From: an uncultured virus (IMG/VR IMGVR_UViG_3300044731_000312)
Lineage: Duplodnaviria; Heunggongvirae; Uroviricota; Caudoviricetes
Virus record (IMG/VR): IMGVR_UViG_3300044731_000312
Strand: one strand, 5' to 3'
DNA length: 64,000 bases
Positions 725 to 54,000 of the stretch are shown here, in pieces (position 1 is the first letter of the stretch; every line of letters starts with the position of its first letter). The translations under genes were made by a program, and so were the position numbers. The notes under the pieces were generated by a model. It was not told where the DNA came from and did no database searches. It worked only from the letters and a program-made list of their open reading frames with translations.

Positions 725-1233
725 TAGGCCAGCGTAATAGGTTGCTGTTCTTCAAAGTTTATTTCGGTTGCAGACAAAGCGATTCCGACTTCCTGCGAAA
801 TATAGCCCGATGTGCTAGGTGCAGTTGAGACAATATCACCTGCGCTTGAACCGCTCAAATAGTAAGGAGCGCCGGGTGTCAAACCTGTGAGCCCTGTGAT
901 TGTACCATCAAGATATACCGTGGCGTTTGCAGGGCTTGTTGTAGATGCAATAACAAAGCCGTGAGCACGGCGTCCATTGCTTGCATCTGCCTTGCGTGCC
1001 TTAACAGTACCGCTATCGTTCCAAAGATTCACAAGATCGCCTGCGCTTAAGTTCTCGCTAGTTGCAGCAACCTTTACAGTTGCACCAATCCCTGATGGCA
1101 ATACTGAATTGTCCAGTTTGCCGCCTCCATCAAGAGCAACAATCTTGCCCGCTTCCGTTGCGCCTGATGATGATACGGTAGCTTCGACTTCTGCGAGCTG
1201 ACCGCTGTTATTTTTGATATACTTTTCTGCCAT
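724..1233 (-). CDS. Putative capsid decoration/fibre-base protein
   Basis: Lies downstream of MCP; G/T/S-rich beta-type sequence (GLTPGAPYYLS); identical protein at 33720..34229. Confidence 0.7.
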   Translation of the reverse strand: MAEKYIKNNSGQLAEVEATVSSSGATEAGKIVALDGGGKLDNSVLPSGIGATVKVAATSENLSAGDLVNLWNDSGTVKARKADASNGRRAHGFVIASTTSPANATVYLDGTITGLTGLTPGAPYYLSGSSAGDIVSTAPSTSGYISQEVGIALSATEINFEEQQPITLA

Positions 1234-1234
1234 G

Positions 1235-1711
1235 TTACACCGTTTGAATGATTGTGTCTATGTCGATGATTAGTGTTGTTGCTGTGATTGCTTTTGCTAC
1301 GTGAACGATTATGCTGCCTCCGGTAGGGGCCGTCTGCGTTAGCGAGCCGTTAGCCCCTAGATAGATAGCTCCCTTTGTCCAGTTCCAAGAAGCATCCGTA
1401 ATCTGCCCGCTTGTTTTGATTGTGATATTCTGCCCCGTGCTCGCCGCCGTCGTACTGATCCCGATTACCACGGCATTCGCAAGCGAGTCTGGCGTAGCAT
1501 ACTTTGCAAGGCCGCTAGAATCCGTTGTAATGCATCGCAAAGCTGACAAGCTAGTAGATGCCACCAGCGTCGTATCAATCGCCGCGGGGACGATTCCGCC
1601 GCTTGCAATGTCAAGCGTAAGATCATAGCTCTGCACGTTGACCGTTGGCTGCGATTGCTTCACATCAACTACTAACGTGTCCTGCTTTATATTGACTACG
1701 CTTAAGCTCAA
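1235..1711 (-). CDS. Putative capsid cement/decoration protein
   Basis: Homolog at 34231..34704 (WNWTKG.YLG.NG.LTQT.P). Confidence 0.7.
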   Translation of the reverse strand: MSLSVVNIKQDTLVVDVKQSQPTVNVQSYDLTLDIASGGIVPAAIDTTLVASTSLSALRCITTDSSGLAKYATPDSLANAVVIGISTTAASTGQNITIKTSGQITDASWNWTKGAIYLGANGSLTQTAPTGGSIIVHVAKAITATTLIIDIDTIIQTV

Positions 1712-32386: not shown

Positions 32387-33514
32387 TTAAGCTCCGTAGT
32401 ATTCCACTACAAAAACAAGACCATCGCCGCCGTTACCGCCAGCTCCTGAGTCAGCACCGTTAGTGCTTCCACCGCCACCGCCGCCCCCTGCACCTTTGCC
32501 ACCATTGGCACCATTGCCAGCAGCTATTGTGCCAGCAGTATTTCCAGCAGCACCTCCGCCGCCACCAGACCCCATTGCTGCAGTTGTTGGGTTGTTGATG
32601 TCTAGCAAGATGTTATTAGCACTGTCGCTACCTGCTGTCCCGTTGCGAGTGCCTGTAGTTGTGCCCCCTGCGGGAGCAGTACCAAGTGTGCCTGCGTCAT
32701 AAATACTACCTCCACTTCCACCGTTGCGAACGCTGTTAAATGCATCTATACCACCTCCACCTCCTCCGCCCGCACCAGCCGTAGAATTCAATCCATTACC
32801 TCCACTACCCCCGGTACCATTAGCGGTGCCACTGCCACCGGTATTACCGTTAGCACTATACGGGCCAAATGCAGGCGTATTCAAATTGCCGTTGCCCCCA
32901 TTTGTTGTGCCAGTGGTTGACGAAGTTGAACCGCTTAGGCCCCCTATACCATTGCGAGCACTGACCAAAGAATCAAAACTAGTGATTCCGCCGTTGGTCC
33001 CCGTAACGCCGCTAGTATCGTTAGTAGTTCTTGCCGCGCCACCCGGGCCCCCACTGCCTATTGTTATTGCATAACTAGATGCCGATAACGTAGCAACGCG
33101 CATAATACGATAAGCATAAGTAGCACCACTACCACCTGCGCCCGAACCCCTAATTGTTGACGCAGCCCCGCGCCTACCACTACCACCACCACCACCAGCA
33201 CCCACGCACAATACTAAAGCACCCCAAAAATTAGATGCTGTTGGTTTTGTCCATGTATCGTTGGCTGTGTATTCGCGGACGACTGGGTTTGTTCCACCTC
33301 CACCAGTAGCGGTCAGGTCAGTCTCGGTTCCTGCGTCGTTCTTAAAATATAGTTTGCCATCAGTCTTTGCGTAGACTATGCCATAGCCAGATGCAGGCGT
33401 AGCTGGTGAGCTGCCTTGTTCAGAAAGAACAGCAGATGCGCCCGCAATCAAGCTATCACTATTCGTTAGCTCTGCGAGTGCAGCCGGTGTTGTTATGGGT
33501 CTTTTATCTGCCAT
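32387..33514 (-). CDS. Glycine-rich fibre protein
   Basis: WTKP, VGAGGGGGSG, GGNGGDGLV.V.EY. Confidence 0.8.
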   Translation of the reverse strand: MADKRPITTPAALAELTNSDSLIAGASAVLSEQGSSPATPASGYGIVYAKTDGKLYFKNDAGTETDLTATGGGGTNPVVREYTANDTWTKPTASNFWGALVLCVGAGGGGGSGRRGAASTIRGSGAGGSGATYAYRIMRVATLSASSYAITIGSGGPGGAARTTNDTSGVTGTNGGITSFDSLVSARNGIGGLSGSTSSTTGTTNGGNGNLNTPAFGPYSANGNTGGSGTANGTGGSGGNGLNSTAGAGGGGGGGIDAFNSVRNGGSGGSIYDAGTLGTAPAGGTTTGTRNGTAGSDSANNILLDINNPTTAAMGSGGGGGAAGNTAGTIAAGNGANGGKGAGGGGGGGSTNGADSGAGGNGGDGLVFVVEYYGA

Positions 33515-33720
33515 TAGTTAAGCTGTGTTTCCGTGCCTGCATCGTTTTTGAAATACAGATTGCCGTCGGTCTTAACATACAACAAAGTCAGTCCAGATGC
33601 AGGCGTGCTCGGGCTGCTGCCCTGTTCTACGAGAACAATAGACGCACCGAATACCAAACTGTCAGAGCTACTAAACTCCGACAGATTGCCGCTGGTTGTT
33701 ATCGGTCGTAGGTTAGCCAT
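33514..33720 (-). CDS. 68-aa virion protein (near-identical to 518..724)
   Basis: Four substitutions versus 518..724. Confidence 0.8.
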   Translation of the reverse strand: MANLRPITTSGNLSEFSSSDSLVFGASIVLVEQGSSPSTPASGLTLLYVKTDGNLYFKNDAGTETQLN

Positions 33721-34229
33721 TAGGCAAGGGTAATAGGTTGCTGTTCTTCAAAGTTGATCTCGGTTGCTGACAGAGCGATGCCGACTTCCTGCGAAATATA
33801 GCCCGATGTGCTAGGTGCAGTTGAGACAATATCACCTGCGCTTGAACCGCTCAAATAGTAAGGAGCGCCGGGTGTCAATCCAGTAAGGCCTGTGATTGTA
33901 CCATCAAGATATACCGTGGCGTTTGCAGGGCTTGTTGTAGATGCAATAACAAAGCCGTGAGCACGGCGTCCATTGCTTGCATCTGCCTTGCGTGCCTTAA
34001 CTGTACCGCTGTCATTCCATAGGTTCACGAGATCGCCTGCACTCAAGTTCTCGCTAGTTGCCGCAACCTTTACAGTTGCACCAATCCCAGAAGGCAATAC
34101 TGAATTGTCCAGTTTGCCGCCGCCGTCAAGAGCTACAATCTTGCCCGCTTCCGTTGCGCCTGATGATGATACGGTAGCTTCGACTTCTGCGAGCTGACCG
34201 CTGTTATTTTTGATATACTTTTCTGCCAT
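33720..34229 (-). CDS. Putative capsid decoration/fibre-base protein
   Basis: Identical protein to 724..1233. Confidence 0.7.
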   Translation of the reverse strand: MAEKYIKNNSGQLAEVEATVSSSGATEAGKIVALDGGGKLDNSVLPSGIGATVKVAATSENLSAGDLVNLWNDSGTVKARKADASNGRRAHGFVIASTTSPANATVYLDGTITGLTGLTPGAPYYLSGSSAGDIVSTAPSTSGYISQEVGIALSATEINFEEQQPITLA

Positions 34230-34230
34230 G

Positions 34231-34704
34231 TTACACCGTTTGAATGATTGTGTCTATGTCGATGAGTAGTTGCGTCGCTGTTAAGGCCTTGCCTACGTGA
34301 ACGACGATAGCGCCGTTCGTTGGTACCGTCTGTGTTAGTGTTCCGTTCGTGCCCAGGTAAACCGTGCCCTTCGTCCAGTTCCAATTTGCGTCTGTCAGGA
34401 TGCCCGAAATTTTAATCGTTGCGTTCGCCCCTGAACTTGCGGCCGTGTATACGATGCCGATGACCTGTGCATTAGCAAGCGTATTGTTGCTAGCGTACAC
34501 AGCCTGACCTGAAGAGTTAGTAGTAACAGCACGGAGCGCCGACAGGTTTTCGCCAGCGACCAGTGTGAGGTCGTCAGAGATAGGCACCAAACCACCCGAT
34601 GCAACATCGAGCGTGATAGTAGACTGGTCAACGTTCAGTTTGAGGTCTTCGTCTGCAATGTTCAGACTAATCGTCGACTGGTCTACGTTTATCGTGGTGC
34701 TCAC
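34231..34704 (-). CDS. Putative capsid cement/decoration protein
   Basis: Homolog of 1235..1711. Confidence 0.7.
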   Translation of the reverse strand: MSTTINVDQSTISLNIADEDLKLNVDQSTITLDVASGGLVPISDDLTLVAGENLSALRAVTTNSSGQAVYASNNTLANAQVIGIVYTAASSGANATIKISGILTDANWNWTKGTVYLGTNGTLTQTVPTNGAIVVHVGKALTATQLLIDIDTIIQTV

Positions 34705-41554: not shown

Positions 41555-41986
41555 CTAATTCTTTTTGACGAACTCGATGGCATCGTCGACAGATCTGACG
41601 ATCCCATAGGGTACGCCATAGCGCAGGCAGCAGTCCGAGAACCTATCCTGTGAATCTGACTTACGACCGCGTGCGGCTTTGACTTCTAACATCCACGCCT
41701 TGCCATCACGATAGACAGCCAGGTCAGCATGGCCCGATGTGGCGTTGATGTTCACCACGCGGTACGATGATAGCCGTGTCCCGTGTTCCAGCTGTTGTGT
41801 GCTGCTGTTCACCCGCACCACCATATACCCGATAAGGCATAATTGGTCTGCTATGGCCTTCTGTATTACCCGTTCGGGTATAATCCCAGATGCTTTCTTG
41901 GCAGCCTTGGCACGCTTGGCAGCCTTCAGCTCATCCAGCAGCCTGTGCTCGCTCGCATCCCAGTCCAGATCGTCTATCTCTCTCAT
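41555..41986 (-). CDS. VRR-NUC nuclease (start MREIDD)
   Basis: E..IQ.AI, G.ADL, LEVK, S.SQ..F. Confidence 0.8.
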   Translation of the reverse strand: MREIDDLDWDASEHRLLDELKAAKRAKAAKKASGIIPERVIQKAIADQLCLIGYMVVRVNSSTQQLEHGTRLSSYRVVNINATSGHADLAVYRDGKAWMLEVKAARGRKSDSQDRFSDCCLRYGVPYGIVRSVDDAIEFVKKN

Positions 41987-42657
41987 TGCATCCCTTGGTT
42001 GTTGTAACAGTGCCACAGTCCGTCGGTACCTTCGAACCATGTGTAGTCGTCGACGTTATGCTCATACATCAGGGACAGCATGGTCTTGCCAGCCTTGACT
42101 CTACAACGTTCCACCACGGCCGACTCCAGTACCTCATGGCTCGGGATTAGTCTGGCCTCGGTAGCGGTGAACTGATGAATATCAGGGCCGTCGTCTGGTA
42201 AGAACCCATCCCACGCGTCGCCTGGTGGCTGTTTATATCGCTTAAAATACTCCCAATCAACAGATAGCACGTCGTACAAATACGTACCTCGGGTTGCCTC
42301 GACGACAGCATCTATGTTTTTAGGTTGCAAGGTGCCACCTGACGTAGCAACCGACGCCAAATCGTCGCAACTGTAACGGTACCATTGACTTACGAGGAAA
42401 TCCAGCATCCTCTCGGTTGCTAGGTTGCAGGGTGAAACTATAGTTTTCACTCTATACTTTTCATTTATTTCTCCTTCTACTTCTAATATATTCTTACAAC
42501 CTAGCAACCTAGAGAAGTAAGTATATATAAACAAAGGGGATAGGTCGGTTGCCACCTGTTCGTCTGAACTGACAACCTTCTGGCAATCCGGCAACCTAGG
42601 TTTGGCAACTGGACTCAGAAGCCCCATCTCTACCAATTCGTCACGTGTGAACAGCAT
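41983..42657 (-). CDS. Hypothetical protein overlapping the putative origin (5' half doubtful)
   Basis: ORF coupled at both ends, but its N-terminal half runs through origin repeats. Confidence 0.4.
   Translation of the reverse strand: MLFTRDELVEMGLLSPVAKPRLPDCQKVVSSDEQVATDLSPLFIYTYFSRLLGCKNILEVEGEINEKYRVKTIVSPCNLATERMLDFLVSQWYRYSCDDLASVATSGGTLQPKNIDAVVEATRGTYLYDVLSVDWEYFKRYKQPPGDAWDGFLPDDGPDIHQFTATEARLIPSHEVLESAVVERCRVKAGKTMLSLMYEHNVDDYTWFEGTDGLWHCYNNQGMQ
42290..42612. repeat. Putative replication origin of B: GGTTGC/GCAACC repeats around an AT-rich core
   Basis: Perfect inverted 13-mers at 42415-42427 and 42497-42509, plus further copies, just downstream of the primase-helicase. Confidence 0.65.
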
Positions 42658-44798
42658 TAGAATTCCCCTTCCTCATCGACAGTAAACTGTGAATGTGCTG
42701 AAGACTTCGTGCCTATAATAACGTTGTAGCCCCTTCGCGTGCCCGTCGTGGTCTTTTTAGCTATGCGGGGTATGTTGGCCTTGGCTAATGCCCTTCCAAG
42801 CCCGTAAATGAACTTATCGTTGATTTGCAGGGATATCTTCTCTTCATCGTAGACACGGTTCGCCAGCTGTGATGCCACCTCGGATGTAGTCAGGAAAGGC
42901 ACGTGAGCCCCTGAGCCCTCCGGCTTGTGCGTTATGTACTTGGACACTAGGTCATCATACTGTGTCAACACCTCGAAGTGCTTATTCCAGTCGTTGATCT
43001 TGCTTATCTCCCGATCATCAAACCAGTAACGCTTGCCTTCACGATAATAGGCCACAGCTTGCGACCACAGACCGTCGATGTCAAACTGCCGTATTGAGGT
43101 AATGTCGATGTTGCCCCCTACCGGTATGACAGGGAACCGGCGCGATCCGGTCTCGTCGTTTAGGAACGTTCGCCTATTAACAGATCCTGCAAAGGAGCAT
43201 CTTCTGGCGTACGTAGTCTCATACTTATCGTAAGGAGACCGCAGGCGCATAGTGTCGGAAGTAATGATGGCCTTGATAGATTCGTGCTGTTTTTTGGTCA
43301 TCGACTCCAGTTCGTCATCTACGACCATGAACGACCTGGCAATGATCAGTTTGACGTCCTTGTCATCCGAGATGCTGCCCTCATGGTAATAGTCTTGGCG
43401 AAGTTCAACAGGGCATAGGTGCCGTAGATAGGTCGTCTTGCCTATCCCTTGCCCCCCCTGTAGAATTAGCATGATGTGGTTCGGTTTGTGATCCAAAGCA
43501 CCGGCCACGGCCCCTATGAGCCACTTCTCGATGATCATCTCGAATATGGCATGCTGTACTTCGGCTGAGTTGTGCTTTCCATCGTCGATATCGGCATCGT
43601 GTGGCAGTAGCTGGACATAATCACGGATGAAATTGCGATCGCCTGCTTTCCACTCGTCCAAACCTTCGAAATAGGATTTGATAGGGTCGTGCTTAGGTAC
43701 GAAATCACTGTCGAGCACTTCGTTCATGCGCTCTTTGGTGATCTTGATGCCTATCTTCCGCATCTTACGAAGCTGACTGTGCACCCAGTAGTCCGTCAAG
43801 GCTTCAAATTTTACGTCGTTGTCACCCCTGAGCTCGATTTTGCCTGTGATGACATTCTTGCGAAACTCGTAACCACTTGAAAGATAGCTTTCAACCTTGT
43901 CGAGGATCTCGGTGGGGTCTTTGGTCTCAAGTTTGATGATGTCCTTGGGTACCTCATAACCGTGTAGCTTGGCGTAATAGTACAGCGTGGCAGTGGTCAC
44001 CCGTGTTAGCTTATTTTTCAGAACATCGGCATACGTCAGGCCTCCAGACATCGGTGACCACTCCTCGAGGAGCTGTGCGGCCATCTTATCGTCACCCAGG
44101 GCGTGTGCTACTGCTGCCACTACTTTCTTCCACTGGATGTGATCCTGCTGCTTAGGTATGACACGTAGCATGGCCCTGATCTGGTCGACGTTAGGCTTGG
44201 TACCTCCAAAGGCGTTGAAAGCGATCTCCAGATCCCGTGCTTCCTCATGGCCGTCTGTCATGTCCGCGATCTGATCCATGGTCAGGATGTTACCCCAGAC
44301 ATGGATCTGTGCGTTCTTAGCACCAAACCAGATGCGTACTGCATCCCGTGCGTTGGTATCGCCTCCGAAGCGTTCAGCCAGGGCGGTAGTTATGGCCTTG
44401 TAGTCTTTGGCGTTGCGTATGGGCTCCTCGGTTATGAACATAACCCTATAACGTGGGTTCTCTGCCGTGTGCGAGGCTGTCGTATATGCGAACGAAGCAT
44501 ACTTACGGAAATATGGGTCTGCCTCGATGTCGTCGAAGCTGTGCTTGCCATTGTCGACGTCGACACCCACGATCTGTGCAGACTTGAAAGCATCCCCGTT
44601 ACGCTTTGCAAACCCTGTCTTCTGATCGACGTGTAGGTCAGCACAGCAGATAGGCCACCCGTGACCTACGAGGTGGTTGATGATGTCATCGCTGACCATC
44701 TCGACAGGTGAGAGCTGGGCGCTTAGTGCTACCCAATCCTGACGTGTTGCGGCCTTGTTGACAACAGTTTTGTTAATCGATAGACGTATCACTTGCAC
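42657..44798 (-). CDS. VirE/VapE-family primase-helicase (AEP-like N-terminus, PriCT-2, P-loop)
   Basis: DVD, YTTASH, PRYR; GGQGIGKT, DDEL, R.PY, FLNDETGSRRF. Confidence 0.88.
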   Translation of the reverse strand: MQVIRLSINKTVVNKAATRQDWVALSAQLSPVEMVSDDIINHLVGHGWPICCADLHVDQKTGFAKRNGDAFKSAQIVGVDVDNGKHSFDDIEADPYFRKYASFAYTTASHTAENPRYRVMFITEEPIRNAKDYKAITTALAERFGGDTNARDAVRIWFGAKNAQIHVWGNILTMDQIADMTDGHEEARDLEIAFNAFGGTKPNVDQIRAMLRVIPKQQDHIQWKKVVAAVAHALGDDKMAAQLLEEWSPMSGGLTYADVLKNKLTRVTTATLYYYAKLHGYEVPKDIIKLETKDPTEILDKVESYLSSGYEFRKNVITGKIELRGDNDVKFEALTDYWVHSQLRKMRKIGIKITKERMNEVLDSDFVPKHDPIKSYFEGLDEWKAGDRNFIRDYVQLLPHDADIDDGKHNSAEVQHAIFEMIIEKWLIGAVAGALDHKPNHIMLILQGGQGIGKTTYLRHLCPVELRQDYYHEGSISDDKDVKLIIARSFMVVDDELESMTKKQHESIKAIITSDTMRLRSPYDKYETTYARRCSFAGSVNRRTFLNDETGSRRFPVIPVGGNIDITSIRQFDIDGLWSQAVAYYREGKRYWFDDREISKINDWNKHFEVLTQYDDLVSKYITHKPEGSGAHVPFLTTSEVASQLANRVYDEEKISLQINDKFIYGLGRALAKANIPRIAKKTTTGTRRGYNVIIGTKSSAHSQFTVDEEGEF

Positions 44799-44822
44799 GT
44801 GGTTGTTCTCCGTGTGTAGATG

Positions 44823-45026
44823 TTAAAGAATTATGAAAGCTAACAACTTGATAGCCACGTAAGCTATCCCCAGTGCTACGGCACCGATTCCAGCCACTGC
44901 AGCCACGAAGGCCAGCGTTGTAGTGTATACGACAGCCTGACGTGCCCAGGGGGGCAGAGGCGAAGGACGTGAGATGATTAGCTCACGTTCAGCATCGAGG
45001 GCTTTGCGGAAGTCATCGCGGTTCAT
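44823..45026 (-). CDS. Small membrane protein
   Basis: Long hydrophobic C-terminus. Confidence 0.55.
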   Translation of the reverse strand: MNRDDFRKALDAERELIISRPSPLPPWARQAVVYTTTLAFVAAVAGIGAVALGIAYVAIKLLAFIIL

Positions 45027-45526
45027 GGTGTTTTCTCCAATAATTCATGTGCTGTTTTTTTGTAATACATTTTCCCAAGATCCACCATCGATGGCCTCAT
45101 CCATGGAGCAACGGTTTTATACTCGTTTATGCAGCTTTCAAAAAAATCTTTATCTGCCCATGATCTGTTTGAGTTACACCAATAGCATGATGCTATTAAA
45201 TTCAATGGATCGTTGTTTGCATTGTTACCATCAATATGGTCAACATTCACGACCATGCTTTGAACTTTATTAGTACCCGAGTATTTAACTTTCCAAAAAA
45301 GTGGATAACCGCACCAATGGCAAGGACTGTACACATGATCCTTATATCTTATTTCATAGCATAACAATCTATGCGCTGGTATTACTCCTTTTTTATTAGC
45401 TAAAAAATGATCAGGTAAACCTGAAACATCGTAATACCCATTAATACTATGCCATATTTTTATATTTTCAGCAATTTGTGGTAAAAAATTGCTGAAATGC
45501 TCGTATAAAGTCTCATTAACTTTCAT
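45023..45526 (-). CDS. HNH endonuclease, AT-rich (start MKVNE)
   Basis: AHRL, CHWCG, VDHIDGN..NN...NL..SC..CN. Confidence 0.8.
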   Translation of the reverse strand: MKVNETLYEHFSNFLPQIAENIKIWHSINGYYDVSGLPDHFLANKKGVIPAHRLLCYEIRYKDHVYSPCHWCGYPLFWKVKYSGTNKVQSMVVNVDHIDGNNANNDPLNLIASCYWCNSNRSWADKDFFESCINEYKTVAPWMRPSMVDLGKMYYKKTAHELLEKTP

Positions 45527-45731
45527 GCTCACTCCGTGTTGTTGGCATAAAATAGAAACACCCATCGTCGTATGTGAACGGTGGGGTCGTGATGATGACC
45601 CGAGGGTCGAAGTCTGTTTTGCCGTCTTGCTTGGCTCTTACTAAGCTGTCGTAGACAACCCAGCGGGCGCACTTGTCTTTCTGAGCACAGGGGCCGCCTA
45701 TGCATACGGCGATGTCGAGGGGGAGGTTCAT
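45516..45731 (-). CDS. Small Cys-rich protein
   Basis: DIAVC....C.....C.R...C..F. Confidence 0.65.
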   Translation of the reverse strand: MNLPLDIAVCIGGPCAQKDKCARWVVYDSLVRAKQDGKTDFDPRVIITTPPFTYDDGCFYFMPTTRSEHES

Positions 45732-45861
45732 AGTTTAACGGTATGTGTTAAATAAAATTAAGGGCCGGCCTTCCACAACCGGCCCTTGTTCCAAACTCCA
45801 CCACAGGCGTTGCTGTGTTGGTATTTACTACCGACACGCAGGGGCATACCCTGCTTATTGG
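45732..45861 (-). ncRNA. Conserved intergenic structured RNA/attenuator
   Basis: Homologous to 14597-14714; ends in AAGGGCCGG/CCGGCCCTT hairpin plus AATTTTATTT. Confidence 0.65.
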
Positions 45862-46365
45862 TTAGTAAAAAATTTTCTCTACTGGTCGTCCATATACGTT
45901 AGCGTATGCGAACTGATCGACGGCAGGTCGGTACCTGTTCAGCACGTAGTCAATCATAGGGCGAACCTTGCCAATGGTCTTGCTAATGTGAATCTCCTGT
46001 GCCAGCCTCTTGGCAGCCTCGGTTTCGGCGTACTCAGCACGTTTCTTGTCAAGGTATTTCTTGATGATCGTGATTTGTCGCTGATCGTAGTTTGGATCCT
46101 TCGCTGGCACTACGGCCCCGTTGGATTCTATAAACGTTGCCAGTTCTTCCTGCAGCTTGTTAAATGCACTTACGAAGGCGATGAAGTTACCACAGGCAAC
46201 GGTGCGGGTACATCTTACGTTGTTGCGTATTACCTGTATTCTTAACTGGATGCAGTTACCTTCCTTGCGTGCTGCAATGTGCTGTACAATAGGGATGTAG
46301 GCAAGCATTTTTGGATCGCTATGCTCACAGAGTTGCTTCCACACATCAGAAAGGGAGCGTTGCAT
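45862..46365 (-). CDS. Hypothetical protein
   Basis: ORF in the early operon. Confidence 0.55.
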   Translation of the reverse strand: MQRSLSDVWKQLCEHSDPKMLAYIPIVQHIAARKEGNCIQLRIQVIRNNVRCTRTVACGNFIAFVSAFNKLQEELATFIESNGAVVPAKDPNYDQRQITIIKKYLDKKRAEYAETEAAKRLAQEIHISKTIGKVRPMIDYVLNRYRPAVDQFAYANVYGRPVEKIFY

Positions 46366-46999
46366 CGTCGTCTCCTAAAGATGGTGGTAACGTTTCGTTG
46401 ACGGCAACAACACGTTCGTTGCGTTGTAGCTTTGGGCTCACCTTAGCTTGGAACTCAGAGAGTAGGAACTCCATCTGCTTCGTGTCGTCCCATATCTCCT
46501 GACCGCGTACCTTGACTTTTTCCAAGTCCGGCAGTATGATCTTGCCATCGACTGGGTTGATGGAACTACAGTAGAGGCGCTCGATTTTCTTCCCACGCTG
46601 TGAGACAGTGCAGCCGGTGATGACTCTGCTGGCGTCGTCCTTAGGGCTGAAGCTATAGGGCTTGACTGTTGTGTCCAGCGTTGCATCCCACTCGGGATTG
46701 CAGAGCGCCTGTATAAGTGTTTTGCCATAGTTAGAACTGTACTTGAGTGTGAGAACGTAGGTATAAGGCGCATCGACGAAGGTGATCCGCCACTGCTTAC
46801 CGAAGTCGGTATCGGCAACCTCGATGGCCCGCACGAGACCTGTGAACTCATCGTGCACTAATTCGTGCACAGTGTTCCCGTCTTTGGTTACACGAGATAC
46901 AGACTCTGCTGTGGCCTCACGAAGGCGTATACGGCACTTGCCATCGCTGAGGGTAAAATATGTAGCTCCTGTAGCTACTGATGATGATTGAAAACCCAT
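46346..46999 (-). CDS. Putative single-stranded DNA-binding protein
   Basis: Beta-rich, acidic DDDATLPF tail, near the exonuclease. Confidence 0.6.
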   Translation of the reverse strand: MGFQSSSVATGATYFTLSDGKCRIRLREATAESVSRVTKDGNTVHELVHDEFTGLVRAIEVADTDFGKQWRITFVDAPYTYVLTLKYSSNYGKTLIQALCNPEWDATLDTTVKPYSFSPKDDASRVITGCTVSQRGKKIERLYCSSINPVDGKIILPDLEKVKVRGQEIWDDTKQMEFLLSEFQAKVSPKLQRNERVVAVNETLPPSLGDDDATLPF

Positions 47000-47010
47000 G
47001 GTAGGTGTCC

Positions 47011-47508
47011 TTAAAAGGTTTTTGAAAGTGGGTTAAGAATTTTTGTTGCTTCATGTATTTGAATCAAGGCCTCACGCGCGATTTCGCAAGTGTAGTTGCG
47101 TGGTACGCTACACAATTTTACTTCATTCTTACCTTTGCTGTCTGAATAATCCATCGCACGTAAGTAATTATTTGTTTTTGACAGAGTAATATATCTTCTA
47201 CCGGCAGCGTGTTTTTCTAACTCATTAAAGTATTCGTAACCGCCTGCCTCATGGTATACCTTCTCCATTATCTTATGGAGCGTTTTATCAATTATATTTT
47301 TAACCTTGTGCATTTTGTCCATTTGTACTAAACGCATTGGTTTACGTTGCACAGGCTGAACTGCCCGCTTCGGCTTGGCCTCTGGCACAGCAGTGAACGC
47401 GTCTGTGTTGTTCTGTGCCATCGCGTTTTCAAATGCCTCGATTGCTTCGAGCTCTTTCCATAGCTGGCTTTTACGTTGTACCAGCGCTGTTAATATGTGG
47501 TTGCCCAT
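47011..47508 (-). CDS. Hypothetical early protein (start MGNHIL)
   Basis: GGAG RBS; the longer track start lies inside the terminator. Confidence 0.6.
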   Translation of the reverse strand: MGNHILTALVQRKSQLWKELEAIEAFENAMAQNNTDAFTAVPEAKPKRAVQPVQRKPMRLVQMDKMHKVKNIIDKTLHKIMEKVYHEAGGYEYFNELEKHAAGRRYITLSKTNNYLRAMDYSDSKGKNEVKLCSVPRNYTCEIAREALIQIHEATKILNPLSKTF

Positions 47509-47533
47509 AAGGGTCTCCGAATTTATGTGGCTG

Positions 47534-47582
47534 AAAAAAAATATACGCACCGGTGCCCGTCAACCACAACAGACACCGGCAC
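47534..47582 (-). terminator. Intrinsic terminator with apex TGTGGTTG
   Basis: GTGCCGGTGTCTGTT-GTGGTT-GACGGGCACCGGTGC-GTATATTTTTTTT. Confidence 0.8.
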
Positions 47583-47585
47583 GGT

Positions 47586-48443
47586 TTACGAGTGGCCCAC
47601 GGAGAGAAGCCAGTCGTCGTCAGTCAATGTTTCGTCGTTCTTTGCCAGCCGTTCGTAGGCAGCCCGTGCGATGTCTTCAGGGCGCACAATCTCGATGGTC
47701 GCTTGTCCAGGTAAAGTTCCCGTGTAGATTTTCTTTTCTCTTGGCGTTCGTAGTGTGCCGTTCATTGATTTGAACAGCAGGCACCGTGCTGCAATCTCGT
47801 TTAGACTTACCTCGCCTGTCTGACGTTTCCACGTCCACGTTGGATCGGTTCGCCAGTCTTTAGGGAGCCAGTTGTATATCTCAGTAACGGCAGGCCAGCC
47901 GTGCGCTTCGGCGTGTTCGTTCCATGCGAGCCGGTACATCTCCAGCTGGACAGCATAGTCGTCGTATACAGACGATCCACTCTTGAAATCAACTATGGCG
48001 ATTTTGCCATTGCGTAGTCGACATACGAGGTCACATGTGCCAGCGTATTCGTGCCGGTCACTGTATAAAAGCATCTCAACAGCATACACTTCATCGACGT
48101 CTTTGCGGAAGAACGCATCGAATGACATTAGGGACTTGCTGTGGAACTCAGACAATGCTGTCATCTCTATGACTTGCCCTGCCATGTAACGCTCAAACAA
48201 TATGTGCATCTGTGTCCCGCGTTCAGCGGCTTCGTCACGTAGCTGGTTGGCGCCTTCCATGCCATGCTTGGCATACCATGCCATCAGCCCTGGCGGCGTT
48301 GGTGAGGTGGCCTTGATGATACGCGTGACGGAAGGATACCATTTGACGTCAACGTCATTCACCCGCGCATAGAACCTGTCGCCTCCGTCGTCGTAACGGA
48401 ACAGCGGTGCAGGCCGTTCGTGGTTGTGCAGGTTCCAGATCAT
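47586..48443 (-). CDS. PD-(D/E)XK exonuclease (Cas4/RecB-like)
   Basis: PSVT.I, RGT.MH, YAGT.DL, VDFKS, QL..Y. Confidence 0.85.
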   Translation of the reverse strand: MIWNLHNHERPAPLFRYDDGGDRFYARVNDVDVKWYPSVTRIIKATSPTPPGLMAWYAKHGMEGANQLRDEAAERGTQMHILFERYMAGQVIEMTALSEFHSKSLMSFDAFFRKDVDEVYAVEMLLYSDRHEYAGTCDLVCRLRNGKIAIVDFKSGSSVYDDYAVQLEMYRLAWNEHAEAHGWPAVTEIYNWLPKDWRTDPTWTWKRQTGEVSLNEIAARCLLFKSMNGTLRTPREKKIYTGTLPGQATIEIVRPEDIARAAYERLAKNDETLTDDDWLLSVGHS

Positions 48444-48652
48444 CAGTTGTTCTCCGTGTAATAGTTAATGTACTCGATTACCAGTTGCCGCAGCAGTGCC
48501 GACTTGGTTATGCCTTCGGCCTCTGCAATGCTCTTCAGGTGGTTGTTATGCTCTTCAGGTATGCGGAATATAACGTTTGGATTGTAACATGGTTTCCGGC
48601 CCCGTGGTCGTCCGCGTTTACTTTGTGACACGGTACCCCTCGATATATTCAT
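48443..48652 (-). CDS. Ribbon-helix-helix (CopG/Arc-like) regulator with AT-hook-like N-terminus
   Basis: KRGRPRG; FRIPEE...L..IA...GITKSALLR. Confidence 0.7.
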   Translation of the reverse strand: MNISRGTVSQSKRGRPRGRKPCYNPNVIFRIPEEHNNHLKSIAEAEGITKSALLRQLVIEYINYYTENN

Positions 48653-48812
48653 CGTCGATAGCAGAGGCCACTTCCCAGATTTCGTTCATCTCCCTACGGC
48701 ATTCCTGCAACGTCTTGGCCTTGTCGATGCTGTCAACGATTACCCCGAGGTCGTCTACCCATTTGCGGAGCACGGAGATAGGTATCTCACGTGTGAGGGG
48801 CTTGTCAGTCAT
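48618..48812 (-). CDS. Hypothetical protein
   Basis: GAGG RBS; C-terminus resembles 50070..50255 (E.WE...I). Confidence 0.55.
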   Translation of the reverse strand: MTDKPLTREIPISVLRKWVDDLGVIVDSIDKAKTLQECRREMNEIWEVASAIDDEYIEGYRVTK

Positions 48813-49152
48813 GGAACACCTCGTTCAGTTCTTTGCAGGCTCGTTCAGCATTATCCTTATGGACAAAAAATTGTGTTGTTTTTAACACATCGCCATTACC
48901 ATAGACTCTGTGGAGAGTCCACTGCGGCCGAGGTGGACAGTATGCATCAGGATCTGTGAACTCAACGACGTGGTATTCAAACTGCGATGCCTTGATGCTA
49001 TTGACTAAATGTAGACAGTTCTCAAGTTCACAGTGCAGCTTGTAAGTAACGTTCTCATCGGGGCCGTGGTTGACGTAATAGTCTTCCCAGTATGCCTGTG
49101 CTGCTATTGCCAGCAGTTCATAGGCATTCAACAGTTTATCTTGCTTATTCAT
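48805..49152 (-). CDS. Hypothetical protein (start MNKQD)
   Basis: ATGA overlap with upstream gene. Confidence 0.55.
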   Translation of the reverse strand: MNKQDKLLNAYELLAIAAQAYWEDYYVNHGPDENVTYKLHCELENCLHLVNSIKASQFEYHVVEFTDPDAYCPPRPQWTLHRVYGNGDVLKTTQFFVHKDNAERACKELNEVFHD

Positions 49153-49364
49153 CGTTGCCCCCACAAGGTTACGGTTTGGTCTGGTTTGATCATCGGGTCT
49201 GGCGATATAGTGCCAGCCAGGGCGAACATGCCGATTGTTAGAACTGTCAGGAACACGCCAACAGTTAGAAGGCGTTGACGATGTGATCCGTCGATGCGAG
49301 GTGTGACGCGGAACCATAGGTTCCCATCGTAGCGTCCGGTTTTGAACTCAATGCTGAGTCGCAT
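49149..49364 (-). CDS. Conserved early single-TM membrane protein (start MRLSIEF)
   Basis: Homolog of 17070..17291. Confidence 0.75.
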   Translation of the reverse strand: MRLSIEFKTGRYDGNLWFRVTPRIDGSHRQRLLTVGVFLTVLTIGMFALAGTISPDPMIKPDQTVTLWGQR

Positions 49365-49395
49365 AAAAACTCCGTGTAATTTGTGTGTTGGTAGG

Positions 49396-50073
49396 TTATC
49401 TACCGTGGTTGTTTGTTTGCATTGCAATACTAACGAAATCTTTTCGATTTTCCAAAAGCCACTCTCGAGAATTTTTCGCATCCTCTTCGTAATTGGCAAT
49501 TCCCAATGTCTGCGAACCGACGTGATGGACGTATGACCTGGACACGAACACCTCATACCCACGCTGGCGGATGTCGAAGCACTGCACATCGTCACTGTAA
49601 AAATTGATCGGTGGAAAGTCCACCCACGTCTCACGAGTGTAGACAGCCAGCAGAGGAGCCACGCTAGGCACTGCGATGATTTGCAGTTCTTGCGGGTTCT
49701 GGATTGTCCTCTGTTGTTCCATGCCGTATGTGAAACGTATGTTCTGTGGGCCCATCCTCACGTAGTCAGCACGTGATGCTATAACTCCCCAGTGCCGTTG
49801 TTCTCCCTGGCAGATCTCAATGTCTTCGTTCAGCAGTTGGAAGCTATCAGGGCGAAGCACGATGTCGTCGTTGGCGATGGCAAAGGTCCTATGCCCTCCA
49901 CGGATCATCGTATCTACCAGGGCATTGTAGCTTGTCCCGAAGTTACCGAGCGAGTGCTGGCGGAATACCTCCACATCACGTGGTTTGTATTCACGTAGTG
50001 AGGCCAGAAACACCCGTTCGTGAGGCGTGTAATGTGCGCGGCTCTTGTGGCAGTAGCCAAGGGCGGTGATCAT
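49396..50073 (-). CDS. GT2-like glycosyltransferase in the early region
   Basis: NFG.SYN, ANDDI, FYSDD, YVHHVGSQT. Confidence 0.8.
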   Translation of the reverse strand: MITALGYCHKSRAHYTPHERVFLASLREYKPRDVEVFRQHSLGNFGTSYNALVDTMIRGGHRTFAIANDDIVLRPDSFQLLNEDIEICQGEQRHWGVIASRADYVRMGPQNIRFTYGMEQQRTIQNPQELQIIAVPSVAPLLAVYTRETWVDFPPINFYSDDVQCFDIRQRGYEVFVSRSYVHHVGSQTLGIANYEEDAKNSREWLLENRKDFVSIAMQTNNHGR

Positions 50074-50255
50074 GGCGTTTTAGTTTCGTCTAACGAATTA
50101 GCTGCAGCCACCGAGATCTCATCGATGATTTCCCATAACTCTACGCTATATCCAACACCCTCGCATTCAAGGGATTTGGCAAGGTCACACAGCCTGTTGC
50201 TGATCTTGAACAGCTCGATGTGGAGGGTTACGAAGCGTTCGGTGGAGATGCTCAT
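50070..50255 (-). CDS. Hypothetical protein
   Basis: Coupled ORF. Confidence 0.55.
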   Translation of the reverse strand: MSISTERFVTLHIELFKISNRLCDLAKSLECEGVGYSVELWEIIDEISVAAANSLDETKTP

Positions 50256-50395
50256 TTTGCACCGCCTTTCGCCTTGGCTTGCGCCTCGGCTTTGGCCTTG
50301 GCATCTAGGCAGGCTGCCATCATAGTCTTGCCGTAGCCTTCAACTTTCTTACCTGATGACGTCAGGATAAAAGCCTTGTAAATAGGTGTCTTCAT
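50252..50395 (-). CDS. 47-aa protein (not in ORF track)
   Basis: MKTPIYKAFILTSSGKKVEGYG...; ACACGGAG RBS. Confidence 0.55.
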   Translation of the reverse strand: MKTPIYKAFILTSSGKKVEGYGKTMMAACLDAKAKAEAQAKAKGGAK

Positions 50396-50438
50396 TGTGG
50401 TCTCCGTGTGGTTGGTGGTTGTGTTTCTTAACAGCCCA

Positions 50439-50633
50439 TCAGTTTGAATGGGCTGTCTTGCTGTCGTTGATTAGGCGCTGGCGTGTTTTAGCTACAACAT
50501 AAAGCCATTCGATAACGGCATCCGAGGCTTTGCCTTCCTTGTGTGCTGCAATGAGTTCCATGACAGCGGCCGCGAATTGTGCATCGTTAAGTGTTGCGTA
50601 CTTGTAAGCCATATCTACTGTGTAGTCGTTCAT
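50439..50633 (-). CDS. First early gene of B (start MNDYT)
   Basis: Downstream of the promoter; ACACGGAG RBS. Confidence 0.6.
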   Translation of the reverse strand: MNDYTVDMAYKYATLNDAQFAAAVMELIAAHKEGKASDAVIEWLYVVAKTRQRLINDSKTAHSN

Positions 50634-50669
50634 CGTCGTCTCCGTGTATACTGTGGTTGTTTGTTGTGT

Positions 50670-50701
50670 GCAATCTACGGGATATTTATTTGCAATGCAA
50701 G
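50670..50701 (-). promoter_or_regulatory. Main early promoter of B
   Basis: CTTG-N20-TAGATTGC; same position as A's early promoter. Confidence 0.55.
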
Positions 50702-50702
50702 C

Positions 50703-50739
50703 AAAAAATAAAAAACCCGAAAAAATTTTTTCGGGCTTT
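50703..50739 (-). terminator. Late-operon terminator (possibly bidirectional)
   Basis: AAGCCCGAAAA-AATT-TTTTCGGGTTT followed by a T-rich tail. Confidence 0.8.
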
Positions 50740-50743
50740 CTAT

Positions 50744-50875
50744 TTACTTGATTGTCTTGAGCCGTTCCGTCCACACCTTGTGCTGGTTTAACAACTCAGC
50801 ACGGCGCACAGGTTCCATCTGATAATTGAGCAGCGCCTCGATTGCACGAAGCATTAACATTATGTGTTCTCTCAT
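50744..50875 (-). CDS. 43-aa protein (not in ORF track)
   Basis: PVRRAELL; homolog of 19425..19565. Confidence 0.65.
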   Translation of the reverse strand: MREHIMLMLRAIEALLNYQMEPVRRAELLNQHKVWTERLKTIK

Positions 50876-51411
50876 AATGCCGTCAGTGCCTCCGTAAACA
50901 CGCGTATACGCGCTGCAGCACTTGCGGCATAGGTTACACTTGTCGCTGAGTTTGAAAGCACCACAGCGTAGAATGTCGAAGACGTCGACACCGTGCCTGT
51001 GCGAACGTACTTGTCAGGATTGATGCCAGCAATCCAGACCGTATCAGATACACGCTTATAGTCGGTGTCTGCAATAGTAAACGCCCCCAGTAGGTTTGTC
51101 GTCGATCCGTTGTAGACAGCACCCGATGTAGGCGTCGTCGGCGCTGTCGAGTTGTACAGCAGCACAATCAGAGGGCATTTCTTGATGTTCGCAGAGCTCG
51201 ACGCGGTCTCTTCAAACTCGATTTGACGGATGATCGCGTGCTGTTGTGTCGTCTGGGCAAGACCCGTGAGGGTAATAACAGACGCCATGACCGGATAGTA
51301 TTGGCTCAATGCCGTCGTTATAACCGTGCCGGTATTTTGCCAGCCGTGATCTGTAGAGTTAGTAGCTGATAAGACGTTGGCAGCTACTGGCGTATTGGGT
51401 AAGCAGGACAT
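50872..51411 (-). CDS. Tail-tip structural protein
   Basis: Homolog of 19562..20101. Confidence 0.7.
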   Translation of the reverse strand: MSCLPNTPVAANVLSATNSTDHGWQNTGTVITTALSQYYPVMASVITLTGLAQTTQQHAIIRQIEFEETASSSANIKKCPLIVLLYNSTAPTTPTSGAVYNGSTTNLLGAFTIADTDYKRVSDTVWIAGINPDKYVRTGTVSTSSTFYAVVLSNSATSVTYAASAAARIRVFTEALTAL

Positions 51412-51439
51412 GATAATTCCTTGTAATTAGTTTCAGTTA

Positions 51440-52246
51440 TTAAGGCTGGGCGCCCTTGTAAAAGACGTACTCGTTGCCGTCTGTGGCTGTGTTGCCCGTT
51501 GTGTTCAATTCGCAGTTCTCACGATGGCCTGTAATGTAGGCATAGATGGACGACGGGAACAGAACACCTGCCTCTTCCGAGGGCCCGCCTGTTCTTGCTA
51601 TCATTTTGACTTCGAGCTTGTCACCAGCACGGAGTGGGATGTGTGCCCCACCCATCAGCCTAGCGTCACGGATGTGTGGCCCGTCTCCCATGTTGTGATA
51701 GTCAACCATGTCAATGATACGAAACATCACACCGTTTACGAAATACGCAAGACGTGCTTCGTCAATCTGTGACGTGTTTGAGTACCTGATCTGCACGTAG
51801 GTATGCACCCACCAGACGCCTTTGTTCTGATCGGTTGGTCGGAATGACCAGGTGTCGTCATAGTCTAGTGATTCGTTTTGAATGCCTTGCGTCCGCAGGA
51901 ACTCATTGTTAAACGGAACAGGTGTGTACACGTCCGTCATGAACGACCAGTTGCCGTTTAAATCCCATTGGAAAGACTGCTTGTAATCGCCCACCCAATG
52001 CTTCGACCTGTGCTCGCTGTTGGCCATGGCCTTCATGTTGGCATCGGTCTGTGTTATCAGGTACTGTTTAGTGACGATGTTGTTAAACGTTACATTGTAG
52101 TTATAGTCGATGTAATACTGGTAATTGTATACATCGCCATCAGTTTCTTCGCCTGCATAGTATGTGCCGAAGGTCTGCCTACGACGTTCGAATGCCAGCG
52201 AAGCCGGTGCTATCTTGCGATTGTTAACGGGGTCGTTGATAGGCAT
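51440..52246 (-). CDS. Tail-tip receptor-binding candidate, C1q/TNF-like
   Basis: Homolog of 20098..20895. Confidence 0.6.
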   Translation of the reverse strand: MPINDPVNNRKIAPASLAFERRRQTFGTYYAGEETDGDVYNYQYYIDYNYNVTFNNIVTKQYLITQTDANMKAMANSEHRSKHWVGDYKQSFQWDLNGNWSFMTDVYTPVPFNNEFLRTQGIQNESLDYDDTWSFRPTDQNKGVWWVHTYVQIRYSNTSQIDEARLAYFVNGVMFRIIDMVDYHNMGDGPHIRDARLMGGAHIPLRAGDKLEVKMIARTGGPSEEAGVLFPSSIYAYITGHRENCELNTTGNTATDGNEYVFYKGAQP

Positions 52247-54000
52247 TACGTTAGTTCCTGAGATGTTGTCGGTGCTAGCACGTAATAATTGATTTTAGAC
52301 GTTGAAGCAAACCAGTCAACGGATATGGACGTTGGCAGTGCATAATCCCAGTTAATCGAATCGAAAATATCGACGACCGAATCTGTCAATGTGTGCCTGC
52401 CACATAGTGCCGATGGCAGTAATGCCGTTGATTTGGTGTAGTTCCATTCGGTTTCACATGTGGCGTTGTTCTCATCCGCAAAGACGTGCAAGTGCAGCAA
52501 ACACAGTGCAGCCGGCATCGAGGTTTGAGCCTGCATAGCAGCCAGCTGAACACGGTATTTTTCTTGCGATTCGTCGTCTTGAAATTCTGGTTTATCCGAT
52601 GCAGGCGAGGAGATCTTCACCCATTGCGTCGACTTGGGGCCATACCAGTATTTCGTGGTCTCGTGCACCTTGACTAGCGATCCGTTGTTGGCTTTGAACA
52701 GTATCTGGTTCGTCTGCTTATACACTTCGGTGCGTCCGTTCTCATCGTCGTAATCCGTCATGTATACAGGCACGTTGTGAATGATGGGCTCGATGTTCAT
52801 TGACCGTGAGGAGCGAGCGCCTTTTTTAAGACGTACTATCTCGGTAGCGTCCTCTTGATGGCTCGTCTCATATCGTGATTCGGCCTTGGCTATGTTATCC
52901 CCACGCTTAATGATTGTAGGTAATGCCAGCGACTGGTTTAGGGATAGTGTTGCGTCGGTCGTGTCTACGTTGTTGGCGTAGCCTAGTGACGATGCTATGC
53001 GCTTAACATACCAGTTAGCATCAATGTAGATATTGCCACTTTGTGTCTTAGCCTCGAAATTGTAGGAAGCCTTCACACCAAGTGTTTCGCAGAGATCACG
53101 GATGATGTCGTATACAGTAACATCACGGCGCCCCCAGGCGAAGTTATCCCCTAGGCTGTAGAGGCCACCGATTGTTGCTCCACCATAAGAGTCTTTGCTG
53201 ATGTTTGTTGTAAGGTACGAGGTTTGGGAAGTTACGGCTGTCGATATTGTACGCGGTTCGTTGTCTAATCCCATCGTGTACAATTCGATTGCCGCCTCGA
53301 TTAGTTTATCGAGCGTGTTAAAATCAAAGAGTGACCCCGAAGAGCCAAAGGTAGTACGCGCATAGTTTGTTTTTATGTGCGTGCCCATTGCGGTGCGTAT
53401 GTAGCCCATGATCGTTGCGAAGGTATCAGCAAGCACACGCCCTGGGCTTAAATGCTTTTGATTCCTACCGACAAGGTTACGAAGCAGGAACTGGAACACC
53501 TCTGTTTCGGGTGGACGGTGTGCGCCTATCTTGCCATTAAATACTTGATTGCCGGTGAGGGTTTTCATGGCATGGAATACATAGTCGACAAGTTCAACGT
53601 TGTAGCCATAGGAGCCGTCATCAAGGGGCTCTAATTGCACAGCTTCGACGTTATCCTCAACGCCTGCATATTCGACGGTGTACGTCGCACCTGAAGTGCC
53701 ACGATCGGAATAGAGAACCCACAGGTTGCACTTGTCCGGCGCAGCCGGATCTACGCTGTCCTCGATATAATCCTGCACGGCTGATGGCAGCATCGACCAT
53801 GCCAGTTTGAACTTAAGAGTTTGGGGCTTTACGAGCCCGTAGGGCAGCGTTTCAAATTCAGCCGTCTGTGAGCCCAGTTCAAGCAAACAAACGTCACCAA
53901 GGGCCGTTACGGTACCGTTAAGGTTCTCGTCATAGGGTACAAGATCCAGACGTATACGCCAGCCGTTAGGTAACGTTCGTGATAGTCGGTAGATTGCCAT
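52246..54000 (-). CDS. Tail hub/baseplate protein
   Basis: Homolog of 20895..22691. Confidence 0.6.
   Translation of the reverse strand: MAIYRLSRTLPNGWRIRLDLVPYDENLNGTVTALGDVCLLELGSQTAEFETLPYGLVKPQTLKFKLAWSMLPSAVQDYIEDSVDPAAPDKCNLWVLYSDRGTSGATYTVEYAGVEDNVEAVQLEPLDDGSYGYNVELVDYVFHAMKTLTGNQVFNGKIGAHRPPETEVFQFLLRNLVGRNQKHLSPGRVLADTFATIMGYIRTAMGTHIKTNYARTTFGSSGSLFDFNTLDKLIEAAIELYTMGLDNEPRTISTAVTSQTSYLTTNISKDSYGGATIGGLYSLGDNFAWGRRDVTVYDIIRDLCETLGVKASYNFEAKTQSGNIYIDANWYVKRIASSLGYANNVDTTDATLSLNQSLALPTIIKRGDNIAKAESRYETSHQEDATEIVRLKKGARSSRSMNIEPIIHNVPVYMTDYDDENGRTEVYKQTNQILFKANNGSLVKVHETTKYWYGPKSTQWVKISSPASDKPEFQDDESQEKYRVQLAAMQAQTSMPAALCLLHLHVFADENNATCETEWNYTKSTALLPSALCGRHTLTDSVVDIFDSINWDYALPTSISVDWFASTSKINYYVLAPTTSQELT

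Follow-up and report, generated by a model that had tools for sequence, protein, structure and literature searches.

A candidate two-hairpin antisense RNA with loops complementary to repeated tags at the early gene starts of an uncultured tailed phage

The stretch of DNA described here, referred to as the window, comprises 64,000 nucleotides (nt) from an uncultured virus of the Caudoviricetes (IMG/VR record IMGVR_UViG_3300044731_000312), in which two related tailed-phage genomes, A and B, lie head to tail. On the minus strand of phage B, a candidate two-hairpin antisense RNA with a core of approximately 84 nt (47534..47617) overlaps the last codons of an exonuclease gene and ends in a U-tract, and its two loops are complementary to two short sequences, called tags in what follows, that are repeated at the starts of early genes. 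Sequence comparison establishes the structure, its strand and the complementarity of the loops to the two most enriched words of the region, and it shows that loops and tags have changed jointly across three clades. Presumably situated at the 3' end of the early transcript, the element probably lowers the initiation of translation of several early genes. The conserved and co-evolving system of RNA and targets is one that we regard as real, and its function is the part that we infer.

The two tags and the two-hairpin element

The first tag, CAACCAC, had been noticed in a preliminary description of this DNA, which listed nine minus-strand copies in early leaders, a CAGCCAC variant and a terminator loop with the exact complement. 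All nine copies are where that description placed them, the variant is at 47527-47533 and the complement lies in a hairpin loop at 47561-47567; a tenth copy, at 44673-44679 inside the primase gene, had been missed. The assignment to early leaders is correct for five of the nine, which are untranslated (50653, 50415, 50408, 49405 and 44799) and predicted to be open (0.71-0.95 unpaired), but not for the other four, two of which lie just past a start codon (+6 and +18) and two well within genes (+81 and +87). Statistics by region and strand bear out the enrichment: on the minus strand of 44790-50720 the nine copies compare with 0.80 expected under an order-2 Markov model (Poisson p 1.7e-7) and with 1.33 under an order-3 model (p 1.1e-5), both trained on the region itself, and these p values are optimistic because the region was drawn around the motif. 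CAACCAC is the top 7-mer of the region, and the Bonferroni threshold of 3.1e-6 is met at order 2 and missed at order 3. The excess is absent from the remainder of B (1 vs 1.31 and 1 vs 1.34 expected) and from A (2 vs 1.78). Over the whole window the motif occurs 14 times, 13 of them on the minus strand and one on the plus strand; shuffled sequences average 7.9, and one of 100 shuffles reached 14. The genome G013, identical to B, has 12 sense copies and one antisense copy.

The second tag, ACACGGAG, was overlooked in the preliminary description and is the top 8-mer of the same region, with six copies against 0.13 expected (p 7.5e-9). It is an extended Shine-Dalgarno (SD) sequence with a GGAG core that ends 5-9 nt before six start codons; in other words, this tag is the ribosome-binding site itself. 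As an oriented repeat with an SD core before the starts of non-structural genes, it qualifies as a Start Associated Sequence, which is a descriptive class. Paired sites, defined as starts with both tags within 35 nt, are confined to the early region in four complete genomes.

The element that carries the complements folds with a minimum free energy of -39.1 kcal/mol (z -4.3 against 200 dinucleotide shuffles). Hairpin 1 (47588..47617, minus), which the preliminary description did not mention, sits 4 nt before hairpin 2; TCTCCGTG, the complement of ACACGGAG, forms its loop, and its seed UCUCCGUG at 47605-47598 is the complement of the extended SD sequence CACGGAGA. Hairpin 2 (47546..47583, minus) is terminator-like, and its seed UGUGGUUG at 47568-47561 is the complement of CAACCACA. 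It is followed by a U-tract (47534..47545, minus), probably a leaky terminator that would give the RNA its 3' end. A terminator had been placed at 47547-47582, and in the window a hairpin with a U-tract is indeed found, but its true span is 47583-47546 and the U-tract does not occur in all relatives: of the 18 close relatives whose sequence extends to hairpin 2, 10 have it and the other eight read TATTGTTAC, so that hairpin 2 is not a clean terminator everywhere. In distant clades the U-tract is present in some form. Owing to several G-U pairs, hairpin 2 is much more stable on the coding strand than on the other (-26.5 vs -10.6 kcal/mol), which points to RNA, and the G-U pairs of the stem together with the A-to-G variant among the targets fit RNA pairing. 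Since two adjacent hairpins expose loops complementary to the tags, 47617-47534 is read as a two-hairpin RNA, in part anti-ribosome-binding-site and in part anti-CAACCAC. The earlier proposal of one hairpin loop that pairs with many early gene starts is supported by the invariance of the loop under stem turnover and by the joint change of loop and target in two clades, but it was incomplete, given that there are two loops and two tags. A search of Rfam gave nothing at gathering score in the window, and within 44500-51000 no c4-type match up to E 5, only weak unrelated ones.

The start regions that would be targets, all on the minus strand and read from the sequence, differ in the order and number of the tags. 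The leader of the first early gene (50640..50659, start 50633) has CAACCAC at 50659-50653 and ACACGGAG at 50647-50640, both invariant in at least seven aligned relatives despite exchange of the downstream gene. In the leader of the gene starting at 50395 (50402..50421) two copies of CAACCAC run into ACACGGAG, and behind a putative promoter, P2, the leader of the gene starting at 49364 (49370..49411) has CAACCAC at 49411-49405 and ACACGGAG at 49377-49370; this last leader is replaced in six relatives, and the tag turns up again beside the SD sequence. In these three promoter-proximal leaders CAACCAC precedes CACGGAG, antiparallel to loop 1 followed by loop 2, and the order is the opposite at the exonuclease and primase starts. 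The exonuclease start (48420..48459, start 48443) has ACACGGAG at 48459-48452 and a coding CAACCAC at 48426-48420, lost in four of at least 14 aligned relatives, and the primase-helicase start (44799..44815, GTG 44798) has ACACGGAG at 44815-44808 and then CAACCAC at 44805-44799. The target directly behind the RNA (47497..47533, start 47508) combines CAGCCAC at 47533-47527, CGGAGA at 47519-47514 and CAACCAC at 47503-47497; its CAGCCAC is G-U compatible with loop 2, whose computed duplex energy is the same for CAGCCACA and CAACCACA (-10.3 kcal/mol). ACACGGAG stands alone at 45532..45539, upstream of an HNH-like gene that starts at 45526, and varies there in some relatives. Three coding copies of CAACCAC are invariant in 11-17 aligned relatives, in genes of which approximately half of the third codon positions vary: 49066..49072, at +81 in the gene starting at 49152 (at least 11 relatives; 49% of third positions vary), 48539..48545 in the RHH-like gene (at least 14) and 44673..44679, at +120 in the primase gene (at least 17).

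Close relatives and distant clades

The comparison with close relatives is based on 20 loci with 85-100% exonuclease identity, of which 18 reach the element. The sequence of loop 2 is kept in all 18, and in at least 18 aligned relatives seven of the eight positions of the hairpin 1 seed are invariant, the eighth being a change from U-G to U-A; at hairpin 1 the third codon positions of the exonuclease 3' end are locally frozen. A clade with approximately 64% protein identity (L040-42, L162, L163) retains both loops and has stem 2 rewritten, and its different promoters and genes again have CAACCAC and CACGGAG at their starts. In an alignment of 14 sequences, which are related to each other and for which the structure was taken from the window sequence, 91% of the cells are paired, a fraction matched by none of 500 shuffles, and five of the 25 pairs are compensatory, with both sides changed, all of them in helix 2. 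RNAalifold predicts helix 2 from this alignment and does not predict helix 1. A copy of CA(A/G)CCACA follows hairpin 2 in 17 of the 18 close relatives and also in the 64% clade. A scan for the two-loop pattern returned 20 loci; the matches in L026 and L036, with a different spacing, were rejected as chance matches.

At approximately 50% exonuclease identity a two-hairpin element is found in the same place with different loops. In the clade L043/L069 the loops are GUCUGCUCCC and GUGUG and the leaders read (AC)n...GGGAGCAGAC-ATG, with ACACACAC occurring 17-20 times; in the clade L063/L131/L072/L118 the loops are GUCCUCCGA and GUGGUG and the leaders read CCACCAC...TCGGAGGAC-ATG. When the three seed sets are compared across 12 loci, each of the eight own-clade cells has two to five paired sites, while one of the 28 other-clade cells has a single site, in L067, which seems to lie just inside a gene. 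In most cases, searches that were blind to the element led to it as well. In a whole-genome search of start regions, with mechanically called starts, the two loops were the best pair of 7-mers in G013 and G008 and tied best in G011. When 4454 hairpins from 280 loci, many of them redundant, were ranked by loop-target enrichment, this hairpin took the first two places, in L043 and in L005; automatic loop picking placed both B loops in the top 0.4% of windows.

Beyond these clades, no fourth seed set was found among the matches listed by the exonuclease and putative ssb searches (best 80 kept), and a comparable two-hairpin element was not seen behind the exonuclease gene in L045/53/57/59, L061/62/64/67, L070-76 and further distant loci. 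For the leader tag of phage A, TTCAC...ACAAGGG (17560, 17300, 16860 and 13835, minus), no perfect loop match was found on either strand. The idea that the B element is the functional analogue of a small RNA of A is accordingly not supported, as no hairpin loop of A was found that is perfectly complementary to the leader motif of A. A perfect loop complement of the G002 leader motif was likewise not found. In L067 (G006) the loop-1 sequence TCTCCGTG occurs just past the exonuclease stop, inside the next gene (L067:7840-7850), three CACGGAG sites were counted before ATG or GTG and loop 2 is absent; TCTCCGTG is altered in L061 and L064. In the distant phage L147 (3500-11400) a GACTCCAC(AC) repeat is strongly enriched (seven copies, p 5e-12).

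The early region of phage B and its surroundings

Window positions 1-1485 and 32997-34481 match at 89%, and the capsid, portal, terminase and tape-measure genes are each present twice. Phage B begins at approximately 32997, and its early region, entirely on the minus strand, runs from 50720 to approximately 41200 with small genes, an RHH-like gene, a PD-(D/E)XK exonuclease, a putative ssb and a VapE-type primase-helicase. The exonuclease gene (47586..48443, minus; PHROG 298, PF12705) bears hairpin 1 at its 3' end. The gene behind it is labelled putative ssb from its position and an acidic LPF tail; it has no family match in a PHROG scan of 60 window open reading frames (ORFs) or in a Pfam scan. 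Over 41589-54000 the IMG/VR record L001 has the same sequence as B. The record identical to B has 32417 bases and direct terminal repeats and maps only down to approximately 35485 of the window, so that the joining of A and B may reflect either a chimeric assembly or a concatenation.

Five complete records all proved negative in a search for tyrosine and serine integrases. The host, judged from binning only, is probably in the Bacteroidota/Ignavibacteria group; the exonuclease of a relative clusters with a protein of a Bacteroidetes metagenome-assembled genome (MAG), and the RecA of the MAG that holds L118 falls in a cluster bearing the names Ignavibacteria, Bacteroidota and Bradyrhizobiaceae. 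Kapabacteria would be our own guess. A 16S gene was not found in the only MAG that holds a relative, so the anti-SD sequence cannot be read there.

The RHH/CopG-like repressor gene (48443..48631, minus) matches PHROG 876 and 7325, with Pfam RHH matches below the cut-off. Two early promoters are proposed on the minus strand: P1 (50672..50700, TTGCAT-17-TAGATT), whose -35 box overlaps the palindrome TTGCATTGCAA at 50700-50690, and P2 (49417..49455, TTGGAA-17-TAGTAT), which is followed by the palindrome TTGCAATGCAA at 49427-49417. P1 falls below the threshold of a consensus scan and was recognised by its sequence and by comparison with the corresponding positions of relatives. In nine of the 16 loci that were inspected, all of them closely related to B, the palindrome TTGCAWTGCAA overlaps the putative promoters. 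An RHH-like gene is present in one of five records searched, and L041 lacks both the gene and the palindrome.

Early genes are swapped as cassettes among relatives (window 50630-50421, 47543-47019 and 45523-45028; L002-L020), with breakpoints at or beside tags, and in L002 the primase leader is repeated on the two sides of an insertion.

A second structured RNA of approximately 100 nt, without an Rfam match, is common to A, B and their relatives (45855-45755 and 14710-14615, both minus). It consists of a GCAGGG..CCCCTGCG hairpin, a variable middle, TTGG(A/G)AC and a terminal hairpin with a GGAAG loop, and its stems turn over. Its hairpin at 45787-45760 was considered as a second seed and set aside as weak, because GGAAG is the only part that stays constant between A-type and B-type copies and because the supposed seed, GTTGTGGAAG, is altered in L004 and differs in the A-type copies as well. 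This loop is perfectly complementary to the leader tag of L045/53/57/59 (L059:5085, 5331 and 6333), a clade with no sense-strand copy of GTTGTGGAAG of its own; the match could reflect cross-phage targeting or chance. In phage A an element of approximately 22 nt that starts with GGGGCGCAGCATCC (17341-17320, minus) precedes the leader of the second early gene. It also occurs in L007, L012, L015, L040, L057 and L059, with related GGGGCGC... elements in L069, L072 and L067, and may be a processing site or a recombination boundary.

Predicted action, alternatives and relation to known systems

Given that the loops match the tags and that both have changed together in relatives, the element is most likely an RNA off-switch for early protein synthesis. 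Transcription from P1 and P2 would pass through the exonuclease gene and end leakily at hairpin 2, and the structured 3' piece would build up, either processed into a fragment or still forming the tail of the messenger RNA (mRNA). Loop 2 would then dock on the single-stranded, A/C-rich CAACCACA, a probable translation enhancer like those of GcvB targets (PMC3879156), and loop 1 on CACGGAGA, where it would cover the SD sequence and block binding of the 30S subunit; copies of the tag within genes may add decay sites. As the RNA accumulates, initiation at five to seven early genes would fall. Once early RNA suffices, this delayed negative feedback would reduce the output of the promoter-proximal genes, the exonuclease and the primase-helicase. 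A second infecting phage with the same tags could also be damped. Action in trans and a cis contact between the 3' and 5' parts of one long message would fit the sequences equally well.

Several observations weigh against an off-switch of this kind. The independent seed sets number just three, their order is not resolved by the exonuclease tree, and the seeds for the comparison of own and other clades were chosen by eye. The blind pipelines missed L069/G009, in which hairpin 1 is unstable (z -1.4), and in the alignment of 14 sequences helix 1 shows no two-sided change. The computed energies of the loop-leader duplexes (-9 to -15 kcal/mol for loop 1 and approximately -11 kcal/mol for loop 2 at six of seven leaders) ignore kissing-loop strain, and in the window version two weak G-U pairs must open before loop 2 is exposed. 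Upstream of the RNA no -35/-10 pair was found in two of the three clades (the window clade and clade 3), and clade 2 has a TATATTTG box without a -35; in clades without such a promoter, any free RNA has to derive from the early message, by cleavage or as its tail. Loop 2 of B also matches two to three start regions in several other clades, which means that A/C-rich leaders are partly generic. Finally, L059/G002, L067/G006 and phage A have repeated A/C-rich leaders for which a matching loop was not found, so either the leaders need no RNA, or the RNA was lost, or the pairing is imperfect.

The main rival explanation, which we consider rather unlikely, is that the same pairing tunes the termination of transcription or RNA processing and not translation. 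Pairing of the loops with free tags on the nascent RNA, the CAGCCAC behind hairpin 2 among them, would adjust how often transcription continues into the putative ssb and primase genes, or would stabilise or activate the message. The tag copy after hairpin 2 in nearly all close relatives and in the 64% clade, the U-tract in 10 of 18 and the action of P4 CI RNA on termination, as described in PMC4825925, speak for such a role, but loop 1 lies outside the terminator and tracks the SD region in three clades, neither of the two distant clades has a tag immediately after hairpin 2, and the majority of targets are at start codons. It is also unlikely that the tags serve an RNA-binding protein, or act as simple translation enhancers distributed by cassette exchange, while the loops owe their complementarity to descent or accident and form no pairs with them. 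ACACGGAG has an ANGGA core, which we take to resemble CsrA sites. Exchanged genes often begin or finish at tags, repeated leaders occur without a matching loop in L059/G002, L067/G006 and A, and ACA motifs alone enhance translation, according to the account in PMC3879156. This would not explain why neighbouring loops hold exact complements of both tags in three clades whose tags differ, nor why loops stay invariant while their stems turn over; moreover, the tags of clades 2 and 3 are unlike those of the window, and CsrA was not found in the single possible host genome, which is incomplete.

Chance, in the form of A/C-rich leader composition combined with an ordinary terminator, is very improbable. 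The region was picked after the motif had been seen, the excess over the whole window is modest (1/100 shuffles) and the order-3 p value misses the Bonferroni threshold; against this, the enrichment holds at Markov orders 1 and 2, a stable covarying hairpin exists, so composition is not the full explanation, and the tags are conserved in non-homologous leaders with a clade-specific matrix. Because loops and tags covary across clades, a chance reading is contradicted. There is equally little to be said for CAACCAC as a DNA operator of the RHH protein or as an antitermination box, both raised in the preliminary description. An RHH-like gene is present in the region and three copies lie just behind the putative promoters, but CAACCAC is asymmetric and strand-biased, and the operator reading is contradicted by the complete relative G008, from which the RHH gene is absent and which keeps eight sense copies and both loops. 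The likelier RHH operator is the palindrome TTGCAWTGCAA, which is symmetric, lies at both putative promoters and co-occurs with the RHH gene; if so, B would have a protein loop acting on transcription and an RNA loop acting on translation.

Among known systems, the c4 antisense RNA of phages P1 and P7 (RF01695) is a close parallel to the proposed off-switch, in that it is phage-encoded and not opposite its target, its complementary elements are thought to lie in loops and its pairing around a ribosome-binding site blocks translation, as is predicted here (PMC12197685). The same account describes the sequence specificity of c4 as the basis of P1/P7 heteroimmunity, and it places c4 in temperate phages with one antirepressor message as target, whereas here five to seven early genes are tagged and the RNA lies at the 3' end of an exonuclease gene (PMC12197685). 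P4 CI RNA is similar in being cut from a longer transcript of the region that it controls, as we suppose for the present RNA, in having two pairing sites and in limiting the expression of replication genes (PMC4825925). As described there, it causes premature termination at sites that flank it in one leader (PMC4825925); the targets here, unlike those of P4 CI RNA, are dispersed start regions up to 3 kb away, one of the two target sequences being the SD sequence. The feature of c4 and CI RNAs of two separate elements complementary to two target elements is found here, in loops 1 and 2 against CACGGAGA and CAACCACA. Membership of the c4/CI family was nevertheless rejected: there is no Rfam match, the context is behind an exonuclease gene and not an immunity leader, and no antirepressor was found among the 60 window ORFs scanned against PHROGs.

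GcvB is an Hfq-dependent RNA with a single-stranded seed. The present element shares with it a G/U-rich seed directed at A/C-rich sequence just upstream of the SD in many targets (PMC3879156), and differs from this chromosomal RNA in its hairpin-loop seed, its second, anti-SD loop and seeds that differ among phage clades. The sX13 RNA of Xanthomonas has stable stems and apical loops that recognise short motifs near many mRNA starts without Hfq, but it is chromosomal and pairs C-rich loops with generic G-rich motifs, where the phage element has two different loops for private tags (PMC3771888). As in RNAs of the GcvB and sX13 type, a conserved exposed seed is complementary to several start regions, and seed and targets change together. 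A model for a cis version is icaR of Staphylococcus aureus, in which an anti-SD motif at the 3' end pairs with the upstream SD and blocks initiation, in that case for a single gene and a single site and not for several genes with two seeds (PMC3868564). On the target side, the Start Associated Sequences of Cluster K mycobacteriophages are asymmetric extended-SD repeats a few bases before non-structural starts; their partner, RNA or protein, is left open in PMC3203893, whereas here a complementary, co-varying RNA element is present. A literature search, with subscription journals largely outside its reach, found no description of this element, and none of five loop strings occurs in six supplement files of the phage structured-RNA catalogue PMC10690425, whose files 1, 2 and 4 lie outside this count and may include this RNA.

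Among the phage antisense RNAs considered here from PMC12197685, those aimed at phage genes act on one gene or transcript. A two-seed phage RNA aimed at its own early-gene regulon, whose seeds and targets have been rewritten together in each of three lineages, would be a novel arrangement for timing phage gene expression. It is possible, although we hold the idea only tentatively, that non-integrating phages use a private two-part address code, in which a lineage-specific barcode of enhancer plus SD sequence and a matching two-loop RNA serve to switch off their own early programme and that of superinfecting phages with the same barcode. If this were true, the three seed sets would be RNA-defined immunity groups, an RNA counterpart of repressor-operator heteroimmunity, and the RNA would be a possible answer to the question of what reads the start-associated repeats of phages. 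The system offers a direct test for such unexplained repeats (PMC3203893), and its naturally orthogonal RNA-leader pairs provide built-in controls and may serve as orthogonal translation switches.

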